From positions 266 to 64,265 of the forward strand of contig DASUFI010000217.1 of assembly GCA_036274635.1 (NCBI GenBank): a DNA stretch of 64,000 nucleotides, written 5' to 3'. Below the pieces are notes generated by a model that worked only from the letters and a program-made list of their open reading frames with translations, was not told the origin of the DNA and ran no database searches. The stretch is from Planctomycetota bacterium. GTDB taxonomy: Bacteria > Planctomycetota > B15-G4. Below are positions 1-8,487 of this stretch, one piece after another (position 1 is the first letter of the stretch; the number at the start of each line of letters is the position of its first letter). A program made the translations under genes and the position numbers.

Positions 1-1020
1 CCGCTCGTCGGCGACCCCATCGGCCGGCAGGCGCTGCTGGACGAGCTGGCGGCCGAGATGATCGACGCCATGCCCGAGCAGCTCATCGCGCTTGGCGAGG
101 CGGAGCTGGCCTTCTGCGTGGACGAGATGAAGAAGGCCTCGGCCGAGATGGGCCTGGGCGACGACTGGAAGGCCGCGCTGGCGCAAGTGAAGGAGCAGCA
201 CGTGCCGCCCGGCCAGCAGGACGACCTCGTGGCCTCGCAGGCCCGCGAGATGCTGGCCTTCCTCGACGACCACCAGCTCGTGACCGTGCCGCCGCTGTGC
301 CGCGACACCTTCCGCTTTACCATGATCGACGAGGGCGTGCAGAAAACGCTGCCCTACGCGGCCTACGGCGGGCAGGAGATGCTCGTCGCCTACCCGACGC
401 GCACCATGGACAACGACCAGAAGCTGCAGTCCATGCGCGGCAACAACGAGCACTTCTCGCGCATCGTCACGCCGCACGAGCTCATCCCGGGCCACCACCT
501 GCAGGGCTACTCGGCCGAGCGCTACGCGACGCAGCGCGGCTTCGCCTCCACGCCCTTCCTCGGCGAGGGCTGGTCGCTGTACTGGGAGCTGCGGCTCTGG
601 GACCTCGGCTGGGCGCAGGGCCCCGAGGACCGCCTGGGCATGCTCTTCTGGCGCGCGCACCGCGCGGCGCGCATCGTGGTCTCGCTGAAGTTCCACCTGG
701 GAGAGATGACGCCGCAGGAGATGATCGACTATCTCGTCGACCGAGTGGGGCACGAGAAGGCGGGGGCGACGTCGGAGGTGCGCCGCTACATCGGCGGCGA
801 TTATGGGCCCCTGTACCAGTGCGCCTACTTGTGCGGAGGGCTGCAGCTGCTCGCGCTGCACGACGACGTGGTTGGCGCGGGGAAGATGAGCGAGCGCGAG
901 TTCCACGACGCGGTGCTGCGGCAGGGCAGCATTCCGATCGCGCTGATTCGCGCCGCGCTGACGGACGAGCCGCTGAGCAAGGACAAGCCGCCACGGGGGA
1001 CGGTGAAGCGGCGGGGGTGA
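1..1020 (+). CDS. DUF885 family protein (5' partial, extends beyond window start)
   Basis: Frame 1 is open from base 1 with no stop before the ATG at 58. It carries the HELIPGHH motif typical of DUF885 and has ordinary composition. The stop is at 1018-1020. Confidence 0.7.
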   Translation, partial: PLVGDPIGRQALLDELAAEMIDAMPEQLIALGEAELAFCVDEMKKASAEMGLGDDWKAALAQVKEQHVPPGQQDDLVASQAREMLAFLDDHQLVTVPPLCRDTFRFTMIDEGVQKTLPYAAYGGQEMLVAYPTRTMDNDQKLQSMRGNNEHFSRIVTPHELIPGHHLQGYSAERYATQRGFASTPFLGEGWSLYWELRLWDLGWAQGPEDRLGMLFWRAHRAARIVVSLKFHLGEMTPQEMIDYLVDRVGHEKAGATSEVRRYIGGDYGPLYQCAYLCGGLQLLALHDDVVGAGKMSEREFHDAVLRQGSIPIALIRAALTDEPLSKDKPPRGTVKRRG

Positions 1021-1035
1021 GCCGTTCGCTGCGTC

Positions 1036-2436
1036 TTAGGGCGCGTAGCGGCGCAGGACGTGCCAGGCGATGGTCATCCCGTGCACGTCCTCCGCAACGG
1101 GGCGGAAAGCCACGAGCAAGTCGTGCTTCCCCGTGTGAATGGAGCGCAGCAGGTAGGTGTGATCCACGATCGCAGGAACCTGACCGCAGACCGTGCACAC
1201 GCGCTCGCCGGCGTCATCCGCCTGTAGCTCATCCCACCTTCGCAGCTGCGACAGCGTGAGATCGACCGGCGGATGGGCGAGGTCCACCGTGGCCAGATCC
1301 ACGTCGCCGAGATCGAGAAAGGCGCCCGCGCCAGGGTTGCTGATCCCCGTGAAGAAGTGCTTCAGCTTCCATTGCAGGTCGGGCTCCTCGTCGATGCTGT
1401 GACCGTGCGTAACAAAGGAGTAGTACGAGTTGCCACCGGGAGCCTCCGCAAGCCAGTCGTACTCGCCGTTCGGCAGTAGCTGCATCACGCCGGCGTCCGC
1501 GCCGCGGATCACGCCGACCGGCTCGTTCGCCCAGGCCGAGGGAACCGCGAATAGGCGCGCCTCGGAGCGCCGCAGGAGGCCGGTCGCGAGCGCGGCCAGC
1601 CTCTCGCCGTCGCACTGCAGCAGCCAGTCCGGCGCGCCCGCGCTCGAGAAGTCGCGCCGCGGCCGCGTCTCGCTGCGGCGGCCCGCCGTCGACCAGGTCT
1701 TGAGCACGTGGCCCACGAGCACGACCGACTGTGGCGTCGCCTCCATGACCGTGAAGGCCGCGAGCAAATCGTGCTCGCCAGGCAGGATCGCGCGTAGCAA
1801 GTAGCTGTGGCCGGCCAAGGCCGGCGCCCGGCCGATGTCTTCGGTGCCGAGGGCCTCGCACAAGGCCTCATCAGGCCGGCTGTCCTGCGACGCGAACGAC
1901 CATAGGACCTCGCACTGCCTGGCGACTGCAGGATCGAACTCCGATGGCGGCGCCTGCGGTCGGAAGCCGGCGAGGGGAACGGAGCCCAAATCAAGCACTT
2001 GCCCCGTGCTCCCTCCATAGAAGCCCGTGCCGAGAGAGCCCTGCTCGTACGAGAGGTCCGGCTCCCGATCGTAGTCGTGGTCGTCCGTCGCGAAGGAGTA
2101 GTACGCGCCGCCACCGCGCTTGGGCGGAACGTCGTGCAACCCCCGTGCGAGGAGGCGCACGACCTTCGCGTCTGGGACGGTCAGCACCTCCGCGTATTTC
2201 TGCTGCCAGTCGGCCGGTGGGGCCAGCAGTTGCTCGGTGGCTCGCGCGCCGGCCTGACGCGTCAGCGCGAGCAGGGCCTCGATGTCGAGGCTGTCGAAGT
2301 CTGGCGCACCCTGCGGCGCGAGTTGGGGCCCGGAACCGGCCCAAGCCACGAGGAGCGCGAACGCGAGCGATCCGAGGATCCGGTAGCACGCCAGCGATTG
2401 GCCTGTCCCACGAGGCATCGACGGAATCGTACTCAT
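1036..2436 (-). CDS. Secreted two-repeat protein, paralogous to the C-terminal ectodomain of the upstream BlaR1-like sensor
   Basis: The true start is the ATG at 2436 (MSTIPSMPRG..., hydrophobic signal peptide LACYRILGSLAFALLVAWA); the upstream part of the track ORF is Arg-rich junk. It has two internal repeats carrying GGAYYSFATDDHDYDREPDL and GNSYYSFVTHGHSIDEEPDL. The sequence aligns along its length with residues ~520-960 of the 2445..4835 product. It lies 8 nt downstream of that gene's stop. Confidence 0.7.
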   Translation of the reverse strand: MSTIPSMPRGTGQSLACYRILGSLAFALLVAWAGSGPQLAPQGAPDFDSLDIEALLALTRQAGARATEQLLAPPADWQQKYAEVLTVPDAKVVRLLARGLHDVPPKRGGGAYYSFATDDHDYDREPDLSYEQGSLGTGFYGGSTGQVLDLGSVPLAGFRPQAPPSEFDPAVARQCEVLWSFASQDSRPDEALCEALGTEDIGRAPALAGHSYLLRAILPGEHDLLAAFTVMEATPQSVVLVGHVLKTWSTAGRRSETRPRRDFSSAGAPDWLLQCDGERLAALATGLLRRSEARLFAVPSAWANEPVGVIRGADAGVMQLLPNGEYDWLAEAPGGNSYYSFVTHGHSIDEEPDLQWKLKHFFTGISNPGAGAFLDLGDVDLATVDLAHPPVDLTLSQLRRWDELQADDAGERVCTVCGQVPAIVDHTYLLRSIHTGKHDLLVAFRPVAEDVHGMTIAWHVLRRYAP

Positions 2437-2444
2437 GAACCGGC

Positions 2445-4835
2445 TCAGCGCCGTGTCGGCGTCGGGTAGCGCTGCAGCAGGCGCCACGCGATGGTGACGC
2501 CGTCGTCCGTCTGCTCGACCGGCCGGAAGGCAGCGAGCAGGTCGTGCTCGTCCGGCATCGACGACCTCACGATGTAGCTGTGGTCGAGCACCACCGGCAC
2601 GCGCCCCAGGCGGCGCTCGTCCTGAGTCAGCGCCGGAGCGTGGAAGAGGTTCCACGTCCGCAGCTGCTCCTCGTTCAGCCGCGGCGGCGGGTTGTCGGGG
2701 TCCAGGTCCGCGAGAGCGACGTCGCCGACGTCGAGCAGCGCGCCCACCGTGCCGCCGTAGAAGCCGGAGCTGAACCGGTCGCCCGCCAGCTCCAGGTCGG
2801 GCTCGTCGTCGTAGCTGTGGCTGCCGGTCGCGAAGGAGTAGTAGCAGCCGGCGCCGCGCGTAAGCAGGACTCCGTCGTAGCGTCCCCGCTGCAATAGGCG
2901 GGTGATGCCGACGTCCTTCGGCGGACCGAGTCCGGTGGAGGCCCTGATGGCCGCGGACGACACGCCGAGCAGCCGCCGCTCGATCAGGCCCGCGAGGGTT
3001 CCCTGCAGCGCGAAGAGGCTCGGGCCATCGAGCTGCGTCAGCCAGGGCGGAGCGCCCTCGCTCGACCATTCGACGCGCGGCCGGACCTCAGCTTTCGGCG
3101 ACTTCACGGGCCAGGTCTTCAGCTCGCGTCCGACGAGCACGATGGACTCGGGCTGGACCTGCACGAGCGTGAACGCGACGAGGTGATCCTGCCGACCGGG
3201 CTGGATCGTGCGCTGCAGGTAGGTGTGGCCGGCCGTGGCGGTCGCGCGGCCGACGTCGGACTGCGGGATACCGATGGCGGCGATGAATGCGTCGTCTGCG
3301 CGGCCGGTGCCGGCCGGCACGTGGGACGCAAGGAACGAGCACAGTCTCGCCGACTCGGGGTCCAGTCCGGGAAGGTGTAGGTCCGCCGTCACGCTGCCGA
3401 GAGGCACCACGCCGAGGTCCAGGATGTGTCCCGTGTTGTCGCCGGCGAAGGCTGTCCTGATCTCGCTGCCCTCGTAGCCGATGTCCGGGTCTCGCTGGTA
3501 GTCGTGATCGTCGTTCGCGAACGAGTAATAGGCCCCGCCCTGGTCCTTCGGCGAGAGATCGTGGTGGAGCTGGCGCTGCAGCACGCGCGCGATCTTCGTC
3601 CCGGGCACCGCGAGGTCTCTGGCGTAGAGCGTCTCCCAGCCCTCGGGCAGGGCCAGCAGCCGCTCGGTGGCGATCGCGCAGGACTGCTTGCGCAGCGCGA
3701 TGAGCGTGGCGGTGTCGAGCCCATCGAGATCGGGCTTGCCGTCGGCCGTCAGCCGCACGCCGGGGCCGGCCCACGCCAGCAGCAGCACCGCACCGCCGAG
3801 CGCGGCCGTGAGCGCCACTGTCCTGCGCCGCGCTTCCGGCTCGGCGAGCAGCCGTTCCACGCGCTGCAGCAGCACGCCCTTCTCGTTGCCGAGGCACGGC
3901 ACCGGCAGCGGGCGCTGCGCGGCGCGCGACCAGCGCGCGACCGTCTCCAGCCCCTGCGCCAGCTCCAGCCGCGCGCCGGTGCGCTCGCCGGCCCAGTCGT
4001 CGCAGAGCAGCTCGGCGTCCTGCGCGAGGCGCCGGCGGGCGAGGCGGTTCAGCGGCTGCGCGAAGAGCAGGCACTCCAGCAGCCCGCAGGCGCGCAGCCA
4101 GAACAGGTCGCCGCGGCGGACGTGCGCGACCTCGTGCGCCAGGATCGCTGCGAGCTCCTGGCGCGGCAGCTCCTCCACCACGCGACGCGGCAGGCAGATC
4201 TCGCCCGGCCCCAGCACGAGCGGCGTGGACAGCTCGTCCACCAGCGTGAGCCGCGGGCGCCGGCGCAGCTCGTCGTCGCTGCACAGATCGGCGAGCAAGT
4301 CGAGCGCGACGCCCTTGCGGACCGTGCGACGCGAGGCGAGCCGGGCCTTCAGGTGGCGCAGCGCGACGGCGCGGCGCGTCAGCAGGATGGCCGCGCCCGC
4401 CGCCCAGACCGCGATGACGGCGATGGCGATCCAGTTTCGCGGCGGCGCGACGACGACCTGCCTGCTCGGCTCCTCGCGCGGCGGCGCAACCGGCACGTCG
4501 GAGGTGGCCGGCGCGCTCGGGTTGACGATCAGCGTGGTCATCGTCTGCGAGCTGCCCGCCCCTTTGCCCGGCGAGGCCGGCGCCGCGTCCGGAGACGGGA
4601 CCATCCCGGCCCGCAGGCTCGGCGACAGATCCAGCACCGGCCGCGCGCCGGACGGCAGCAGCCAGCCGACGCTCGCCGTGAGCAGCGGCGCGGTCAGGGC
4701 GATCTTCCAGACCCGCTCGCGCGCCGCCGGATCGCGCAGCCGCCCTACGAACGCCAGCGCGCCGAGCAGCAGCAGCGTGCTCTGGACCAGGTAGGTCGCC
4801 AGCCAGCTCGTCGCGCCCAGGATCCACACGCTCAT
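2445..4835 (-). CDS. BlaR1/MecR1-like M56 family signal-transducing peptidase with a non-canonical C-terminal repeat sensor domain
   Basis: The start ATG at 4835..4833 (MSVWILGATSWLATYLV...) overlaps the blaI-like stop by ATGA. The N-terminal transmembrane helices are followed by the zinc-peptidase motif HEVAHVRRGD. A further transmembrane segment is followed by a ~440-aa domain with two repeats (GGAYYSFANDDHDYQRDPD and GCYYSFATGSHSYDDEPDL) in place of a penicillin-binding sensor domain. The first ~170 codons of the track ORF are antisense junk. Confidence 0.8.
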   Translation of the reverse strand: MSVWILGATSWLATYLVQSTLLLLGALAFVGRLRDPAARERVWKIALTAPLLTASVGWLLPSGARPVLDLSPSLRAGMVPSPDAAPASPGKGAGSSQTMTTLIVNPSAPATSDVPVAPPREEPSRQVVVAPPRNWIAIAVIAVWAAGAAILLTRRAVALRHLKARLASRRTVRKGVALDLLADLCSDDELRRRPRLTLVDELSTPLVLGPGEICLPRRVVEELPRQELAAILAHEVAHVRRGDLFWLRACGLLECLLFAQPLNRLARRRLAQDAELLCDDWAGERTGARLELAQGLETVARWSRAAQRPLPVPCLGNEKGVLLQRVERLLAEPEARRRTVALTAALGGAVLLLAWAGPGVRLTADGKPDLDGLDTATLIALRKQSCAIATERLLALPEGWETLYARDLAVPGTKIARVLQRQLHHDLSPKDQGGAYYSFANDDHDYQRDPDIGYEGSEIRTAFAGDNTGHILDLGVVPLGSVTADLHLPGLDPESARLCSFLASHVPAGTGRADDAFIAAIGIPQSDVGRATATAGHTYLQRTIQPGRQDHLVAFTLVQVQPESIVLVGRELKTWPVKSPKAEVRPRVEWSSEGAPPWLTQLDGPSLFALQGTLAGLIERRLLGVSSAAIRASTGLGPPKDVGITRLLQRGRYDGVLLTRGAGCYYSFATGSHSYDDEPDLELAGDRFSSGFYGGTVGALLDVGDVALADLDPDNPPPRLNEEQLRTWNLFHAPALTQDERRLGRVPVVLDHSYIVRSSMPDEHDLLAAFRPVEQTDDGVTIAWRLLQRYPTPTRR

Positions 4836-5284
4836 GATTTCCCTCCTCGCCCTCGCCCCTTGCTGTGGTTCGTCGCGCCGTTCTGCCGACGGCGCTCCGC
4901 GATGAGCCTCGACACGCGGTCCAGCTCGTCGTCGCCGATGGCCTCGCTCTCGATGAGCCGGCAGACGAGCGCCGCGGCGTCGCCGCCGAAGACGCGCTGC
5001 GCTAGGTCGTCCAGCATCGTCTCGCTGGCCCGCTCGTGGCTGACCCGCGCCGTGTAGCAGAACTGCCGGCCGCGCTTGCTGCGCTCGACGACGCCGCGCG
5101 CCTCGAGGCGCGTGAGCACCGTGGCGACCGTGCTGGGCGTCAGGCTCCGCGTTCGCCTGAGCACGCCGTGCACGTCGAGCACGGTCGCGCCGGGCTGCTG
5201 CCACAGCACGTTCAGGATCGCGAGCTGCAGCTCGGAGAGCGGGCCGCTCTCGGGATCGCGGCGTGGACGCTTCGCAGTGGACAT
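4832..5284 (-). CDS. BlaI/MecI/CopY family transcriptional repressor
   Basis: It is 150 aa with a winged-helix N-terminus (LSELQLAILNVLWQQPGATVLDVHGVL...TVATVLTRLEARGVVERSKRGRQFCY) and a C-terminal dimerisation helix. It is translationally coupled (ATGA) to the M56 peptidase gene. Confidence 0.85.
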   Translation of the reverse strand: MSTAKRPRRDPESGPLSELQLAILNVLWQQPGATVLDVHGVLRRTRSLTPSTVATVLTRLEARGVVERSKRGRQFCYTARVSHERASETMLDDLAQRVFGGDAAALVCRLIESEAIGDDELDRVSRLIAERRRQNGATNHSKGRGRGGKS

Positions 5285-5323
5285 CGCGTGGTTCTCCAGG
5301 ATCGTGCGGCGCGAACGTCCGCG

Positions 5324-5794
5324 CTACTTCGCCCACTCCGCCGAGCTGTCGACGTAGAGCGCCGCCTTGCGCAGATTCTTCACGGGCACGTCATCGGGCG
5401 ACTGGAACAGCATCGCCGTGCCGCCGCCACCGACGGGCTTCACCGAGAGGGTCGAGCCGTCGGCGAGCGTGAAGACCAGGTGCAGGTCAGCGTAGGGCGC
5501 GTCGATGAAGGCGTTGGGCGTGTTGAGCCCGACGAACACTCCGAGGGCCGGTCGGTCGAGACCGACGATGAGGGCGCCGCCCTGGACCGTGTCGCTGACG
5601 CGGAAGCCGATGCTGCTCGCGCCTGGCGCGCCGTCGCGGGGTCCGCGCTCGATGGCGTACTGGGACACGTCCTGCTGGAACAGGAGGCGGCCCTCCTCAC
5701 CCGCTGCCTGATGCGCGCCGGAAGCCGGGACGACGAGCAGACCGAGGACAGAGAGGCATCCTGCGACGACCACGGCCATCGTGTCGGACTTCAT
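5324..5794 (-). CDS. Small secreted hypothetical protein
   Basis: The start ATG is at 5794, with GGGAG 9 nt upstream. It has a signal peptide (MKSDTMAVVVAGCLSVLGLLVVPASGA) and non-biased composition. It sits upstream of, and in the same orientation as, the blaI-like gene. Confidence 0.55.
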   Translation of the reverse strand: MKSDTMAVVVAGCLSVLGLLVVPASGAHQAAGEEGRLLFQQDVSQYAIERGPRDGAPGASSIGFRVSDTVQGGALIVGLDRPALGVFVGLNTPNAFIDAPYADLHLVFTLADGSTLSVKPVGGGGTAMLFQSPDDVPVKNLRKAALYVDSSAEWAK

Positions 5795-5834
5795 GGGTTG
5801 GCTCCCTCGGGGCGGGCTGATTTCGACAGGCGTA

Positions 5835-5863
5835 GAATTACGACAGTTGTAGAAGTTCGTCAA
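5835..5863 (-). promoter_or_regulatory. Candidate sigma70-type promoter for the 5794 gene
   Basis: On the minus strand TTGACG (5863..5858) is followed by a 17-nt spacer and TAATTC (5840..5835), about 40 nt upstream of the ATG. This is a locally AT-rich patch in a GC-rich intergenic region. Confidence 0.3.
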
Positions 5864-5940
5864 GCCCTGTCTTCGGCCTCGAGGCCCCGGCTTTTCCCGA
5901 GAGGCACTCCGCATTGACGGTCCGCCCGCAGCCCCGGAGC

Positions 5941-6972
5941 ATGCCGACCATGCCTGCCCCCGACGTCGCCCCCGTCCTCCAGACCGCCTTCGGCTTCTGG
6001 TCCTCCAAGGTCCTGCTCACCGCGGTCGAGATGCGGCTGTTCACGGTGCTCGGCTCGCGCCGCCTCACCGGCGGCCAGCTGGGCGCCGAGCTGAAGCTGC
6101 ACCCGCGCGGGATCGCGGACTTCCTCGACACGCTCGTGGCGCTGGGCTTCCTCGACCGCGACGGCAGCGGCCCGGAGGCACGCTACGCGAACAACGAGCT
6201 GGGCTCGACCTACCTCGACGAGGCCAGCGCGCGCTACGTGGGCGGCATCCTGACCATGCTCAACGTGCGCCTGTTCCGCTACTGGAACGACCTGCCCGAG
6301 GCGCTGCGCACCGGCCGCCCGCAGAACGAGACGAAGAGCGGCGGCAAGAACGCCTTCGACGAGCTCTACTCCGACCCGGTGCGGCTGGAGCAGTTCCTCA
6401 ATGCGATGACCGGCCTGTCGCGCATCAACTTCGAGGCGTTTGCGCAACGCTTCGACTTCAGGCCGTTCAAGTCGCTGTGCGACGTGGGCGGGGCCACGGG
6501 CCTGCTGTGCTGCGAGGTCGCCAAGCGGCACCCGCACCTGCAGTGCACGTCCTTCGACCTGCCGGTCGTGGAGCCCGTCGCCAGCAAGGCCATCGCCGCG
6601 CGCGGGCTCGCGGGCCGCGTGCGCACGGCGGCGGGCGACTTCTTCGAGGACCCGCTGCCGCGCGCCGACCTCATCACGATGGGCATGATCCTCCACGACT
6701 GGAACCTGGAGAAGAAGCTGCACCTCATCCGCGCGGCCTACGACGCGCTGCCGCCGGGCGGCGCGCTGGTCGCGATCGAGGCGCTCATCGACGACGAGCG
6801 CCGCAAGAACGCCTTCGGCCTGCTCATGTCGCTCAACATGCTCATCGAGTTCGGCGACGCCTTCGACTACAGCGGCGCGGACTTCCGCGGCTGGTGCACG
6901 CAGGTGGGATTCAGGCGCTGCGAGGTGCTGCCGCTGGCCGGGCCGTCGAGCGCCGCCATCGCGTGGAAGTGA
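5941..6972 (+). CDS. Class I SAM-dependent O-methyltransferase (COMT/Methyltransf_2-like, with N-terminal dimerisation domain)
   Basis: It has the SAM-binding region LCDVGGATGLLCCEVAKRHP, together with DLPVV and GGALVAIEALIDD motifs. The likely start is the ATG at 5941 with GGAG 4 nt upstream; the track ORF begins at an upstream TTG at 5914. Confidence 0.8.
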   Translation: MPTMPAPDVAPVLQTAFGFWSSKVLLTAVEMRLFTVLGSRRLTGGQLGAELKLHPRGIADFLDTLVALGFLDRDGSGPEARYANNELGSTYLDEASARYVGGILTMLNVRLFRYWNDLPEALRTGRPQNETKSGGKNAFDELYSDPVRLEQFLNAMTGLSRINFEAFAQRFDFRPFKSLCDVGGATGLLCCEVAKRHPHLQCTSFDLPVVEPVASKAIAARGLAGRVRTAAGDFFEDPLPRADLITMGMILHDWNLEKKLHLIRAAYDALPPGGALVAIEALIDDERRKNAFGLLMSLNMLIEFGDAFDYSGADFRGWCTQVGFRRCEVLPLAGPSSAAIAWK

Positions 6973-7050
6973 GCGCCCGCGTCGAGCAGGCGGCTCCAAG
7001 CCGAGGTACAAGGAGGGGCCCGCTCCCTCGCCTCCCCACCCGGAATCCCC

Positions 7051-8013
7051 ATGCGCCTCGCCCCGAGCCTGCTCGCCGCCTGCCTGTGTGCGGCCCTCGC
7101 CCCCTCCGCCGGCGCCACGATCGTCAAGGTCACGATCCACGGCACCGTCGCCTTCAACTCGATCACCAAGGCGCCGTTCACCCAGGTGAAGACGGGCGAT
7201 GGCGCCGTGCTCTCCTTCCTGCTCGACAGCGGCAGCTTCGTCGACAGCCCGAGCTTCCCGACGCGCGGGTACGTGATCGACCAGTCCAGCTGCACGCTGG
7301 CCTTCCCCACCGCGACGGTGCCGCTGCAGTCACCCTTCCCCGCGGGTCAGACGCCGTACTTCGTCATCCGCAACAACGACCCGGCCGTGGATGGCTTCTT
7401 CATCTCGACGGACGTGGACGGGCCGACCAGCCTGCCGCTCGCGCCCGTGGGCTCCTTCGGGCACTTCGCCGACGCCTTCCACGTCACCTACGAGGGCAGC
7501 ACGCTCGCGTCGCTCGACCTGCTCGGCGCGCTGGGCAGCTACGACTACACCGGCCTCACCGTCTTCGGCTGGTCGGTGGACGACGGCCCCTTCGACCCGC
7601 TGGGCATCGACTTCGTGTCGATGACGATCGAGACCGCGGTCCCGACCTGGACCGACGAGGGCCACGCGCTGGCGGGCGTCGCGGGCAAGCCCGTGTTCAC
7701 GGGCAGCGGCAGCCTCGCCGGCGGCAGCGCCAACTCGCTCGCGCTCGCGAGCGCCGCGCCGGGCGCGCTGGCCGGGCTGATCGTGGGCCTCACGAGCGCG
7801 AGCCTGCCCTTCAAGGGTGGCACGCTCGTGCCCGCTCCGGACGTCGGGCCGGTGCTGGTGCCGGTCAGCGGCGCGGGCACGATCGCGCTGCCCTTCACGA
7901 TGCCGGCGGGCCTGCCCGCGGGCACCTCGCTGTGGATGCAGTGGGCGGTCCCGGACGTCGCCGCCGTGCACGGTGTCGCGCTCAGCAATGCGCTGCTGGG
8001 GCAAACGCCCTGA
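7051..8013 (+). CDS. Secreted hypothetical protein
   Basis: It has a signal peptide (MRLAPSLLAACLCAALAPSAGA), a Gly/Ser/Thr/Ala-rich low-Arg composition and no recognisable motif. Confidence 0.6.
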   Translation: MRLAPSLLAACLCAALAPSAGATIVKVTIHGTVAFNSITKAPFTQVKTGDGAVLSFLLDSGSFVDSPSFPTRGYVIDQSSCTLAFPTATVPLQSPFPAGQTPYFVIRNNDPAVDGFFISTDVDGPTSLPLAPVGSFGHFADAFHVTYEGSTLASLDLLGALGSYDYTGLTVFGWSVDDGPFDPLGIDFVSMTIETAVPTWTDEGHALAGVAGKPVFTGSGSLAGGSANSLALASAAPGALAGLIVGLTSASLPFKGGTLVPAPDVGPVLVPVSGAGTIALPFTMPAGLPAGTSLWMQWAVPDVAAVHGVALSNALLGQTP

Positions 8014-8031
8014 TGCCGGGGGTGCCGCGCC

Positions 8032-8487
8032 TCAGTGCGGCTTCCTCCCGCCCTGGCCCTCGCGCCGTGCCACCTCGCCCACGCCCGTGTCCTCGACGCC
8101 GTGCTTCAGCTCGTCGCGCGCGCGACGGGCGAGCAGCTGGTAGTCGTGCCGGATCTTGGTCAGCTGAATCTCGTCCAGCTCCTCGAGGTCGAGCAGCGCG
8201 TTGTGCGCGCCGTCCAGCGCGCGGATGAGCTCGTCCAGCTTCACGTGCAGCGCCTCGGAGTCGCGGTACTGCGCGTTCTGGATGAGGAAGACCATGAGGA
8301 AGGTCACGATGGTCGTGCCGGTGTTGATCACGAGCTGCCATGTGTCGCTGTACTGGAAGAGCGGGCCCGTCACGAGCCAGACGAGGACGACCACCACGGC
8401 GATGAGGAAGGCGGCCGGGCTGCCCGTGCGTCGCGAGACGCCCGAGGCGAAGCGCGTGAAGCGGGAGGCCGAGCGGGACGGGCGCAT
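8032..8487 (-). CDS. Low-affinity iron permease family membrane protein (Iron_permease/DUF1003-like)
   Basis: The conserved core TWQLVINTGTTIVTFLMVFLIQNAQ has two transmembrane helices and is followed by a coiled C-terminus. Confidence 0.7.
   Translation of the reverse strand: MRPSRSASRFTRFASGVSRRTGSPAAFLIAVVVVLVWLVTGPLFQYSDTWQLVINTGTTIVTFLMVFLIQNAQYRDSEALHVKLDELIRALDGAHNALLDLEELDEIQLTKIRHDYQLLARRARDELKHGVEDTGVGEVARREGQGGRKPH

Follow-up and report, generated by a model that had tools for sequence, protein, structure and literature searches.

A predicted autoregulated BlaIR-family operon from a planctomycetal genome, carrying an undescribed two-repeat sensor domain

The window, by which we mean the whole 64,000-nucleotide stretch of planctomycetal DNA analyzed here, carries on its minus strand what is probably an autoregulated proteolytic signalling operon of the BlaIR family, comprising an operator/promoter, a small predicted secreted protein, a BlaI repressor, an M56 protease transducer and a free paralogue of the sensor domain. 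The system is of a known kind, a BlaIR-family one, and it carries an undescribed sensor domain. BlaI/BlaR-like pairs are widespread, and most of their sensing domains are of undefined nature (PMC13492132). Among roughly 15,000 M56 proteins only about 6% bear a penicillin-binding domain and about 94% do not, so that a non-penicillin ectodomain alone is not unusual (PMC13492132). The sensor domain encountered in this operon is definable as a family, and thereby makes part of the BlaIR-like input side tractable. Its recurrence behind a transmembrane (TM) helix in two types of signalling protein, M56 proteases and extracytoplasmic function (ECF) sigma factors, argues that it serves as an extracytoplasmic input module.

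The locations of all features are compiled in Table 1. A preliminary description of this DNA had proposed a four-gene layout centered on a BlaI/BlaR1-type, ATGA-coupled module, and both proposals were upheld: the ORF listing placed the small ORF, BlaI, M56 and free paralogue genes on one strand with the coordinates then assigned, the repressor and transducer matched PF03965 and PF05569, and an ATGA overlap joins the two genes. The small ORF precedes BlaI by 39 nt, and 8 nt separate the M56 stop from the ATG of the paralogue; these short gaps argue for a single transcript. Adjacent, co-oriented genes for a PF03965 repressor and a PF05569 protease were found in the window and in loci L002, L087, L088 and L093, and partly in L003, L095 and L096. 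The BlaI-M56 pair overlaps or abuts at every M56-fusion locus having upstream sequence.

Table 1. Features of the operon and its divergent neighbor (window coordinates)
Feature	Position	Strand	Details
Free two-repeat paralogue	1036-2436	-	466 aa; last gene of the operon
Paralogue repeat 2	1039-1635	-	
Paralogue repeat 1	1681-2307	-	
Paralogue N-terminus	2338-2436	-	residues 1-33; signal peptide or anchor
M56 zinc-metalloprotease transducer	2445-4835	-	796 aa; C-terminal two-repeat ectodomain
M56 ectodomain repeat 2	2448-3053	-	residues 595-796; repeat HMM E 4.7e-96
M56 ectodomain repeat 1	3099-3737	-	residues 367-579; repeat HMM E 4.8e-93
Last TM helix of M56	3756-3824	-	residues 338-360, RRR before it; from hydropathy and sequence
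ELLCD	3999-4013	-	M56 residues 275-279
HEVAH	4122-4136	-	M56 residues 234-238
BlaI/MecI-family winged-helix repressor	4832-5284	-	150 aa
Small ORF	5324-5794	-	156 aa; N-terminal hydrophobic segment; heads the operon
Conserved promoter/operator	5820-5863	-	44 nt; 17-nt tandem repeat detected
Operator 2	5822-5837	-	TTCTACGCCTGTCGAA
Operator 1	5839-5854	-	TTCTACAACTGTCGTA
O-methyltransferase	5914-6972	+	divergently transcribed; PF00891 E 1.3e-41; PF08100 also matches

The repressor matches PF03965 over residues 16-129 (E 2.5e-28) and aligns over its full length with the structures of MecI, BlaI and Rv1846c (E 4.5e-10). Its residues 15-128 correspond to residues 7-120 of the 123 in MecI, and thus include both the winged-helix and the dimerization domain. 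The Asn-Phe cleavage site is not kept in this BlaI, the LVLNF of MecI being aligned with LVCRL (LN/F to CR/L). Identification of the repressor as CopY was rejected, since its match to TIGR02698 is partial and falls below the cut-off (65.8 bits against 121.95), and its C-terminus (...RRRQNGATNHSKGRGRGGKS) is devoid of Cys and hence of a CxC...CxC metal site.

In the transducer, PF05569 was recognized at residues 95-280 (E 1.8e-24; 86.9 bits, cut-off 31), an assignment that stands although the N-terminal half of the protein matched no PDB sequence at E<=0.01. Hydropathy analysis revealed hydrophobic segments at residues 11-31, 133-158 and 338-360, together with one weaker segment, and the positive-inside rule and the topology of BlaR1 would place the C-terminal domain outside the cytoplasm. 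Residues 360-796 yielded neither PF00905 nor any other Pfam match, and scores against the NCBIfam models blaR1_generic (33 bits, cut-off 400) and MecR1 (15, cut-off 1200) were far below threshold, in agreement with the earlier view that this ectodomain, lacking a transpeptidase domain, is not penicillin-binding.

Upstream of the small ORF lies a 44-nt block in which a -35-like TTGACG (5858-5863) precedes two dyads spaced by 17 nt, with cores TACAACTGTC and TACGCCTGTC; a consensus scanner called no sigma-70 -10 hexamer at this promoter. This block is the sole match in the 64 kb to the pattern TTCKACNNNNGTCGWA, for which 0.16 matches are expected. It is kept in seven BlaI-M56 loci (the window, L002, L087, L088, L093, L095 and L096), in the last six of which it stands upstream of BlaI. 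Proteins of these seven loci are just 38-82% identical; across the loci the arms of the dyads are fixed and their centers variable. Both cores in the window fit RNYKACANNYGTMRNY, the experimentally refined operator consensus of the CopY/BlaI family (PMC7253601), and BlaI of this operon presumably binds these dyads. A further match to the operator pattern in a metagenomic sequence (L094) was set aside as chance or unrelated, as BlaI does not follow it and the second dyad is absent. The operator precedes the small ORF, which is therefore the first gene of the operon: the small secreted protein noted previously as lying upstream in the same orientation is present, and its position downstream of the operator adds that it belongs inside the transcription unit.

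From these features we infer the following regulatory cycle. At rest, BlaI dimers would occupy two tandem KACA-NN-YGTM dyads overlapping the promoter, and the operon would be repressed. The zinc-protease domain of M56 would lie on the cytoplasmic face of the membrane and the two-repeat domain, past the last TM helix, in the periplasm, where a periplasmic or envelope signal acting on it would be passed across the membrane. The activated protease would inactivate BlaI, presumably by cleavage, and the resulting derepression would supply more of the small secreted protein and of the free two-repeat paralogue. The latter would most likely bind the ligand of the sensor and thus provide feedback or serve as an effector, comparable to BlaZ or PBP2a alongside BlaR1 or MecR1. 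In a more speculative extension, which we advance with considerable reserve, the repeat of approximately 200 residues would represent a new fold and a new class of extracytoplasmic input domain serving two outputs gated by proteolysis, namely cleavage of BlaI by M56 and release of a tethered ECF sigma factor, and the co-expressed soluble paralogue would bind the same envelope or environmental ligand as the sensor; if true, the operon would contain its own means of sequestration or feedback, analogous to BlaR1/BlaZ.

Alignment of the M56 ectodomain with the free paralogue (46% identity over 441 aa; E 2e-121) and an internal repeat match (40% identity over 168 aa; E 3e-31) bear out the proposal that the ectodomain is a duplicated domain and that the paralogue has the same two repeats, each unit being approximately 200 aa in length and present twice per protein. 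Of the GGAYYSF-type signature ascribed to these repeats, G..YYSF occurs as written in three of the four, and M56 repeat 2 reads GCYYSF. The domain defines a family of 1118 clusters (E<=1e-3), most of them representing ECF sigma factors with one TM helix and two repeats in Planctomycetota, or, in Acidobacteriota, secreted proteins with a single repeat; fusions to M56 are rare, and stand-alone free forms, with one repeat or two, are common. In 87 of 177 members examined, ECF sigma regions 2 and 4 were recognized ahead of a long C-terminal extension, and 78 of those 87 have exactly one hydrophobic segment before the domain. The last TM helix precedes the domain in all six M56 fusions, and 38 of 57 complete free forms begin with a hydrophobic segment. 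When members with long N- or C-terminal extra sequence were scanned with Pfam, M56 and ECF sigma were the only output domains fused to the repeat domain, with no kinase or anti-sigma domain among them. The window itself encodes no sigma fusion, and a free form is also encoded by the cultured organism Saltatorellus ferox Poly30.

Across 354 distinct repeats several polar residues are near-invariant (R 0.99, D 0.94, R 0.93, S 0.91, Y 0.90), and this conservation suggests a defined binding site; the repeat domain looks like an undescribed sensor module. Clustering of gene neighbors at 80 genome loci gave no functional clue, the only synteny found being that of housekeeping genes in Acidobacteriota (dnaX, tadA, aroA, aroK). 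The repeat is well defined, by its length, by polar residues that hardly vary, by confident models and by a family of over 1000 clusters, and it occurs in three contexts (M56 protease fusion, ECF sigma fusion and free). Its ligand, once found, would explain the input both of a set of planctomycetal sigma factors and of this operon, for which the conserved operator offers a ready reporter and the free forms, including that of S. ferox Poly30, soluble material for binding and structural work.

BlaZ and PBP2a bind the ligand sensed by BlaR1 and MecR1, and the BlaI/BlaR1 and MecI/MecR1 systems of Staphylococcus aureus and Bacillus licheniformis provide the closest frame of reference. Shared with them are a PF03965 repressor coupled to an HEXXH M56 protease predicted to be multi-pass, a C-terminal domain, predicted here to be extracytoplasmic, after the last TM helix, two TACA/TGTA-type dyad operators at the operon's own promoter and, more loosely, an encoded homologue of the sensor domain (the free paralogue here, BlaZ or PBP2a there). 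The planctomycetal system differs from them in having a two-repeat domain rather than a transpeptidase sensor, in the order of its genes, repressor first and protease second, and in its failure to keep the N-F cleavage site. It resembles CenIR of Clostridioides difficile and other BlaIR-like systems without a transpeptidase domain in its pairing of a BlaI-type repressor with M56 and in having a C-terminal region that matches no known domain (PMC13492132). That of CenR, however, is short, and most of it is predicted to be disordered (PMC13492132), whereas the ectodomain described here has 430 aa, is confidently predicted to be folded, is internally duplicated and belongs to a large family whose members are also fused to sigma factors or occur as free proteins. 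Diverse C-terminal extensions of ECF sigma factors are a known trait of Planctomycetes (PMC7671368, PMC7826278); the sigma fusions of this family, with a single TM helix and two repeats, would be membrane-tethered sigma factors, an extension of which we found no description in those two reports. With the CopY/CopR copper repressors the system has in common the repressor superfamily and operator cores fitting the same consensus (PMC7253601), but its partner gene encodes a protease and not copper export functions, and its repressor has no C-terminal CxC metal motif.

Whether the ectodomain is a characterized ligand-binding family was addressed with Pfam 2025, NCBIfam 20 and PDB, in which the repeat domain found no match when presented as single sequences, as a profile of 48 repeats or as the 48 repeats individually. 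The best profile match among PDB sequences had an E-value of 1.4, and the Pfam scan of the 48 repeats returned nothing consistent and no hydrolase or other enzyme family. Foldseek comparison of two-repeat and single-repeat models with PDB gave only noise (all E>=0.02, probability <=0.14, query-normalized TM-score <=0.20, rmsd >10 Å except in short aligned fragments), despite model pLDDT of 88-92. These results make it very improbable that a known fold, for example a PAS/Cache-like or other alpha+beta sensor, was missed by the searches. The want of a known ligand-binding fold lends itself also to a different interpretation, that the domain is no receptor and acts instead as an enzyme, or as a protease-sensitive plug which is unfolded or cleaved under envelope stress to start the signal. 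Both outputs would be gated by proteolysis, in that M56 cleaves BlaI and a tethered sigma factor needs release, and the conserved R, D, S, Y and H could equally make a catalytic or metal site. We consider such a role unlikely: no enzyme family was detected, and the conserved residues are found again in secreted proteins of Acidobacteriota with one repeat and no signalling partner, which fits a binding module at least equally well. A plug in the sigma fusions would resemble the site-1 cleavage of anti-sigma factors.

The free paralogue raises a separate alternative to its proposed part in signalling, namely that it is functionally independent of BlaI and M56, a periplasmic family member with its own role, brought to its present position by local rearrangement. 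Consistent with this, a downstream free paralogue is absent from all five other M56-fusion loci having downstream sequence (L002, L003, L087, L088, L093), so that among the loci compared the pairing of M56 fusion and free paralogue occurs in this genome only. In addition, the 8 kb fetched to each side of its orthologue P0002 (463 aa, 69% identical) contain no BlaI or M56 gene; P0002 follows a cytochrome-c-like gene, and its surroundings are syntenic (DUF885, a secreted protein of 319 aa, an iron permease and a molybdate ABC transporter). The preliminary description had portrayed a membrane sensor with a soluble decoy or co-receptor; as a conserved design this portrayal is contradicted by the same comparisons, which limit the generality of a sensor-plus-decoy idea and render the paralogue's membership in the signalling unit lineage-specific at best. 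Independence is favored, too, by the frequency of free forms that stand alone, and by repeat 2 of the paralogue, where Q319, N323, N336 and N367 stand in place of four family-conserved residues that the M56 ectodomain keeps (R646, R650, G663, G694 of its repeat 2). Against it, co-transcription is likely, as the paralogue and M56 genes share a strand, lie 8 nt apart and have no promoter-like or terminator-like site called in between, and the paralogue clade groups with M56 ectodomains rather than with other free forms (99.5% bootstrap), indicating a common origin. We therefore treat independence as a serious possibility, but not the probable one, and retain the paralogue as a putative component of the BlaIR-family operon. 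Judged from the sequences compared, the paralogue dates from an old, partial duplication; the view of it as a recent tandem copy of the adjoining M56 ectodomain was rejected (0 of 200 bootstraps). Nor is it the pseudogenized fragment that might have been suspected, in view of its uninterrupted ORF, its orthologue of nearly equal length and a confident AlphaFold model (pLDDT 87.8, pTM 0.83). Its hydrophobic segment (residues 14-33), followed by A-W-A/G, makes a signal-peptide-bearing, soluble protein plausible; the segment is also homologous to the last TM helix of M56 (LLLAWAGPG versus LLVAWAGSG), and from this homology the protein may instead be membrane-anchored.

The small ORF at the head of the operon, with a hydrophobic segment at residues 3-28, has no match in Pfam or NCBIfam, and its homologues form 25 other clusters (50-72% identity). 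The neighborhoods of these homologues are unrelated and lack BlaI/M56 and the operator, for which reason we rejected the small ORF as a conserved partner of BlaI/M56. L088 has in the same position a 51-aa ORF with a signal peptide, which shows no significant similarity to the small ORF and a weak C-terminal resemblance. The predicted secreted product of the small ORF is a candidate regulated output.

The genes examined on both sides of the operon (window 58-8487) include none for a beta-lactamase or a penicillin-binding protein. A divergent partner equivalent to the O-methyltransferase is not conserved at the other loci compared, and the syntenic stretch fetched for L001 has no strong match (tblastx, at least 90 bits) to the O-methyltransferase, small ORF or BlaI. 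In the window, the O-methyltransferase gene and the operon have in common the intergenic region that contains the operator, and the enzyme is a possible, unproven member of the regulon.

The BlaI/BlaR1-type organization and the new duplicated ectodomain reported in a preliminary description of this DNA proved accurate, the ORFs, Pfam families and repeat alignments all agreeing with it. Four closely spaced ORFs lie on the minus strand (1036-5863) of the window, whose G+C content is ~70%; NCBI lists the encoded proteins as hypothetical, from a Planctomycetota MAG (locus tags VFY71_11350 and VFY71_11365). The repressor matches PF03965 (Pfam, E 2.5e-28) and the sensor-protease, over residues 95-280, matches PF05569 (86.9 bits, cut-off 31), with the motifs HEVAH at residues 234-238 and ELLCD at residues 275-279. 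No match in Pfam or NCBIfam was obtained for M56 residues 360-796, the free paralogue or the small ORF. The C-terminal 440 residues of the M56 protein are 46% identical to the paralogue over 441 aa (E 2e-121), and each contains two copies of a ~200-aa unit (40% identity over 168 aa, E 3e-31).

Features of the operon and its surroundings in the window
Feature	Position	Strand	Description
Small ORF	5324-5794	minus	156 aa; hydrophobic segment at N-terminus
BlaI-type repressor	4832-5284	minus	150 aa; start 39 nt past small ORF stop
M56 protein	2445-4835	minus	796 aa; ATGA overlap with BlaI
Free paralogue	1036-2436	minus	466 aa; start 8 nt past M56 stop
Paralogue repeat 2	1039-1635		
Operator-bearing intergenic region	5795-5913		
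O-methyltransferase	5914-6972	plus	PF00891 and PF08100; divergent from intergenic region
Secreted protein	7051-8013	plus	320 aa; no Pfam match

The system belongs to the BlaIR family in the broad sense, and the logic of the module is standard. BlaR1 and MecR1 are beta-lactam sensors defined by a penicillin-binding domain, whereas the M56 protein of the window lacks this domain and is thus not such a sensor. Its absence is ordinary: only ~6% of ~15,000 M56 proteins carry it, the commonest architecture having an unidentifiable C-terminal region (PMC13492132). Planctomycetes ECF sigma factors with varied C-terminal extensions are likewise known in general, and the two-repeat extension is not described in those reports (PMC7671368, PMC7826278). 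The novel elements here are the domain family, with its likely new fold and its deployment in two transducer types, and a conserved operator; the uncharacterized sensor domain is a concrete lead, open to testing and of wide relevance across Planctomycetota.

The domain family is real, large and undescribed. Homology searching with the free paralogue retrieved 42 proteins, and a profile run against 1.84 billion cluster representatives yielded 1118 matches at E<=1e-3 and 285 at E<=1e-30. When 177 sequences were sorted with custom HMMs of the repeat, sigma and M56 portions, 87 combined ECF sigma regions 2 and 4 with two repeats, six joined two repeats to M56, 45 had two repeats (split into three matches in four) without a recognized partner, and 39 had a single repeat. 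Exactly one hydrophobic segment separates sigma and domain in 78 of the 87 sigma fusions, such a segment stands just ahead of the domain in all M56 fusions, and one is N-terminal in 38 of 57 complete free forms, a pattern that fits a predicted extracytoplasmic location. Family members with extra sequence that were examined revealed no further output domain, and both output types joined to the domain, M56 and ECF sigma, are gated by proteolysis. Its constant placement behind a hydrophobic segment and its fusion to only two types of signal output would indicate a sensing role, for which this domain-swap argument is the main support. The ECF sigma fusions are predicted to be membrane-tethered sigma factors without a recognizable anti-sigma domain; their order is sigma regions 2 and 4, a ~30-100 aa linker, one hydrophobic segment and the two repeats (loci L004, L006, L007-L009, L012, L015 and L016). 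The commonest host of the two-repeat domain is a ~700-750-aa protein (P0007-P0029, P0043 onward), none being encoded in the window.

AlphaFold2 confidently modelled the whole paralogue with pLDDT 87.8 and pTM 0.83 (29-sequence alignment) and a single repeat with pLDDT 92.1 and pTM 0.88 (48-repeat alignment). The modelled repeat comprises a long N-terminal helix, five short strands, one or two helices and a three-strand beta-meander, and the high pTM reached with both repeats in one model points to packing between them. Foldseek found no significant match among 350,542 PDB chains (best E 0.02 with the whole protein, 0.43 with the repeat; query-normalized TM-scores all <=0.20, probabilities all <=0.14), and profile searching of PDB sequences reached E 1.4 at best; judged from these models, the fold is likely new. 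Across 354 distinct repeats, near-invariant residues (paralogue numbering) are R215/R431 (0.99), followed by F115/F341, G151/G377, D223/D439, R94, S114/S340 and Y212/Y428.

A 17-nt tandem repeat upstream of the small ORF contains the dyads TTCTAC-AACT-GTCGTA and TTCTAC-GCCT-GTCGAA, with TTGACGAACTT ahead of the pair. The 16-nt dyad pattern occurs once in the 64 kb (chance expectation 0.16 matches), and a simple sigma-70 scanner called no promoter at the dyad region. The 44-nt block of the window also occurs upstream of BlaI in loci L002, L087 and L088, and a pattern scan of public metagenomes added three further BlaI-M56 loci (L093, L095, L096). Over the seven loci bearing the block, identity is 46-82% for BlaI and 38-61% for M56; the dyad arms are fixed and the central bases variable, the signature of a putative protein-binding site. 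The cores, (T/G)ACA-NN-TGTC and TAC(A/G)-NN-YGT(C/A), match the refined CopY/BlaI-family operator RNYKACANNYGTMRNY; BlaI and MecI recognize TACA/TGTA sites, typically with two operators (PMC7253601). A further match to the operator pattern, in metagenome contig L094 (3733-3757), is probably due to chance, having no BlaI after it and no second dyad; the adjoining ORF has a phage-like look.

Because the small ORF follows the block in the window, this ORF is predicted to head the BlaI-controlled unit; in this genome it looks like cargo brought under the repressor's control, and so a candidate output. Elsewhere, save in L088, the block leads straight into BlaI. In L088 a signal-peptide-bearing ORF of 51 aa (5394-5549), between operator and BlaI, takes the place of the window's ORF; BLAST found no significant similarity between the two, but their C-termini are alike (…VSRFADWAR versus …DSSAEWAK). 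The small ORF belongs to a conserved family of secreted proteins of ~156 aa, in which 25 further homologous clusters share 50-72% identity with it. Homologues in three larger contigs do not adjoin BlaI/M56 and have no operator, and one adjoins an ECF sigma/Ser-Thr kinase pair. At L089 (6262-8733), a 60% identical homologue, followed by two small unannotated ORFs, borders a divergent ECF sigma factor of planctomycete type (PF07638) and a TPR-containing Ser/Thr kinase; this may be another envelope-signalling setting for the family. The O-methyltransferase gene of the window is placed as blaZ is relative to blaR1-blaI.

The free paralogue is intact and under constraint, as its orthologue P0002 (463 aa, 69% identical), kept motifs and confident model attest. 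The P0002 region, in L001, is syntenic with the window (DUF885, 86% identical; a 319-aa secreted protein; iron permease; molybdate ABC transporter); a cytochrome-c-like gene precedes P0002, and the 8 kb retrieved on either side contain no BlaI/M56 gene. The syntenic stretch has no strong match to the O-methyltransferase, small ORF or BlaI, its similarity to M56 being confined to the common domain, so these four genes may have moved as one block. The 320-aa secreted protein is conserved there (<=83% identity in tblastx segments), its counterpart adjoining P0002.

In a neighbour-joining tree of 98 two-repeat domains (bootstraps from a 16-sequence subset), the paralogue grouped with P0002 (100%), this pair with the M56 ectodomains of the window, P0003 and P0004 (99.5%), and that clade with the deeper M56 fusion P0053 (74.5%) and then also P0068 (63.5%). 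None of the 200 replicates placed the paralogue as sister to its own M56 neighbour. The paralogue's hydrophobic N-terminus and the final TM helix of M56 are homologous (LLVAWAGSG versus LLLAWAGPG). Most simply, the 3' portion of an M56 sensor gene, last TM helix included, would have been duplicated long ago, the copy persisting as a separate secreted or anchored protein. The earlier interpretation held for the BlaIR-type module; the pairing of sensor and free decoy as a conserved design did not generalize, since the domain does not appear again downstream of M56 in L002, L003, L087, L088 or L093. In repeat 2 the paralogue has Q319, N323, N336 and N367 where 75-93% of the 354 repeats have R, R, G and G; the neighbouring M56 ectodomain keeps the family residues, which hints that the function of the paralogue may have diverged. 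Participation in the signalling loop and existence as an independent neighbour carry about the same weight, and the paralogue may act in ligand sequestration, feedback, as a co-receptor or independently.

Among species-representative genomes, two-repeat forms belong to Planctomycetota. Single-repeat forms (~240 aa, secreted) are mostly from Acidobacteriota (Pyrinomonadaceae, Blastocatellia), apart from a few MAGs that carry the label Clostridia, Heliobacteriaceae or Obscuribacteraceae. They sometimes occur as adjacent gene pairs, often so in the Acidobacteriota MAGs (L013, L014, L022, L027, L048, L051, L057, L070, L084), which suggests that a pair of repeats, fused or separate, is the functional unit. 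Directly downstream of many single-repeat genes is dnaX, an adjacency that appears to reflect lineage synteny and to carry no information on function. Among cultured organisms, the family was found only in Saltatorellus ferox Poly30, whose 512-aa free form (L075 6022-7560, NZ_CP036434.1) has a clear repeat 1 and a degenerate repeat 2 (…GYSYLLRK…), the latter discerned only by eye and missed by the repeat HMM.
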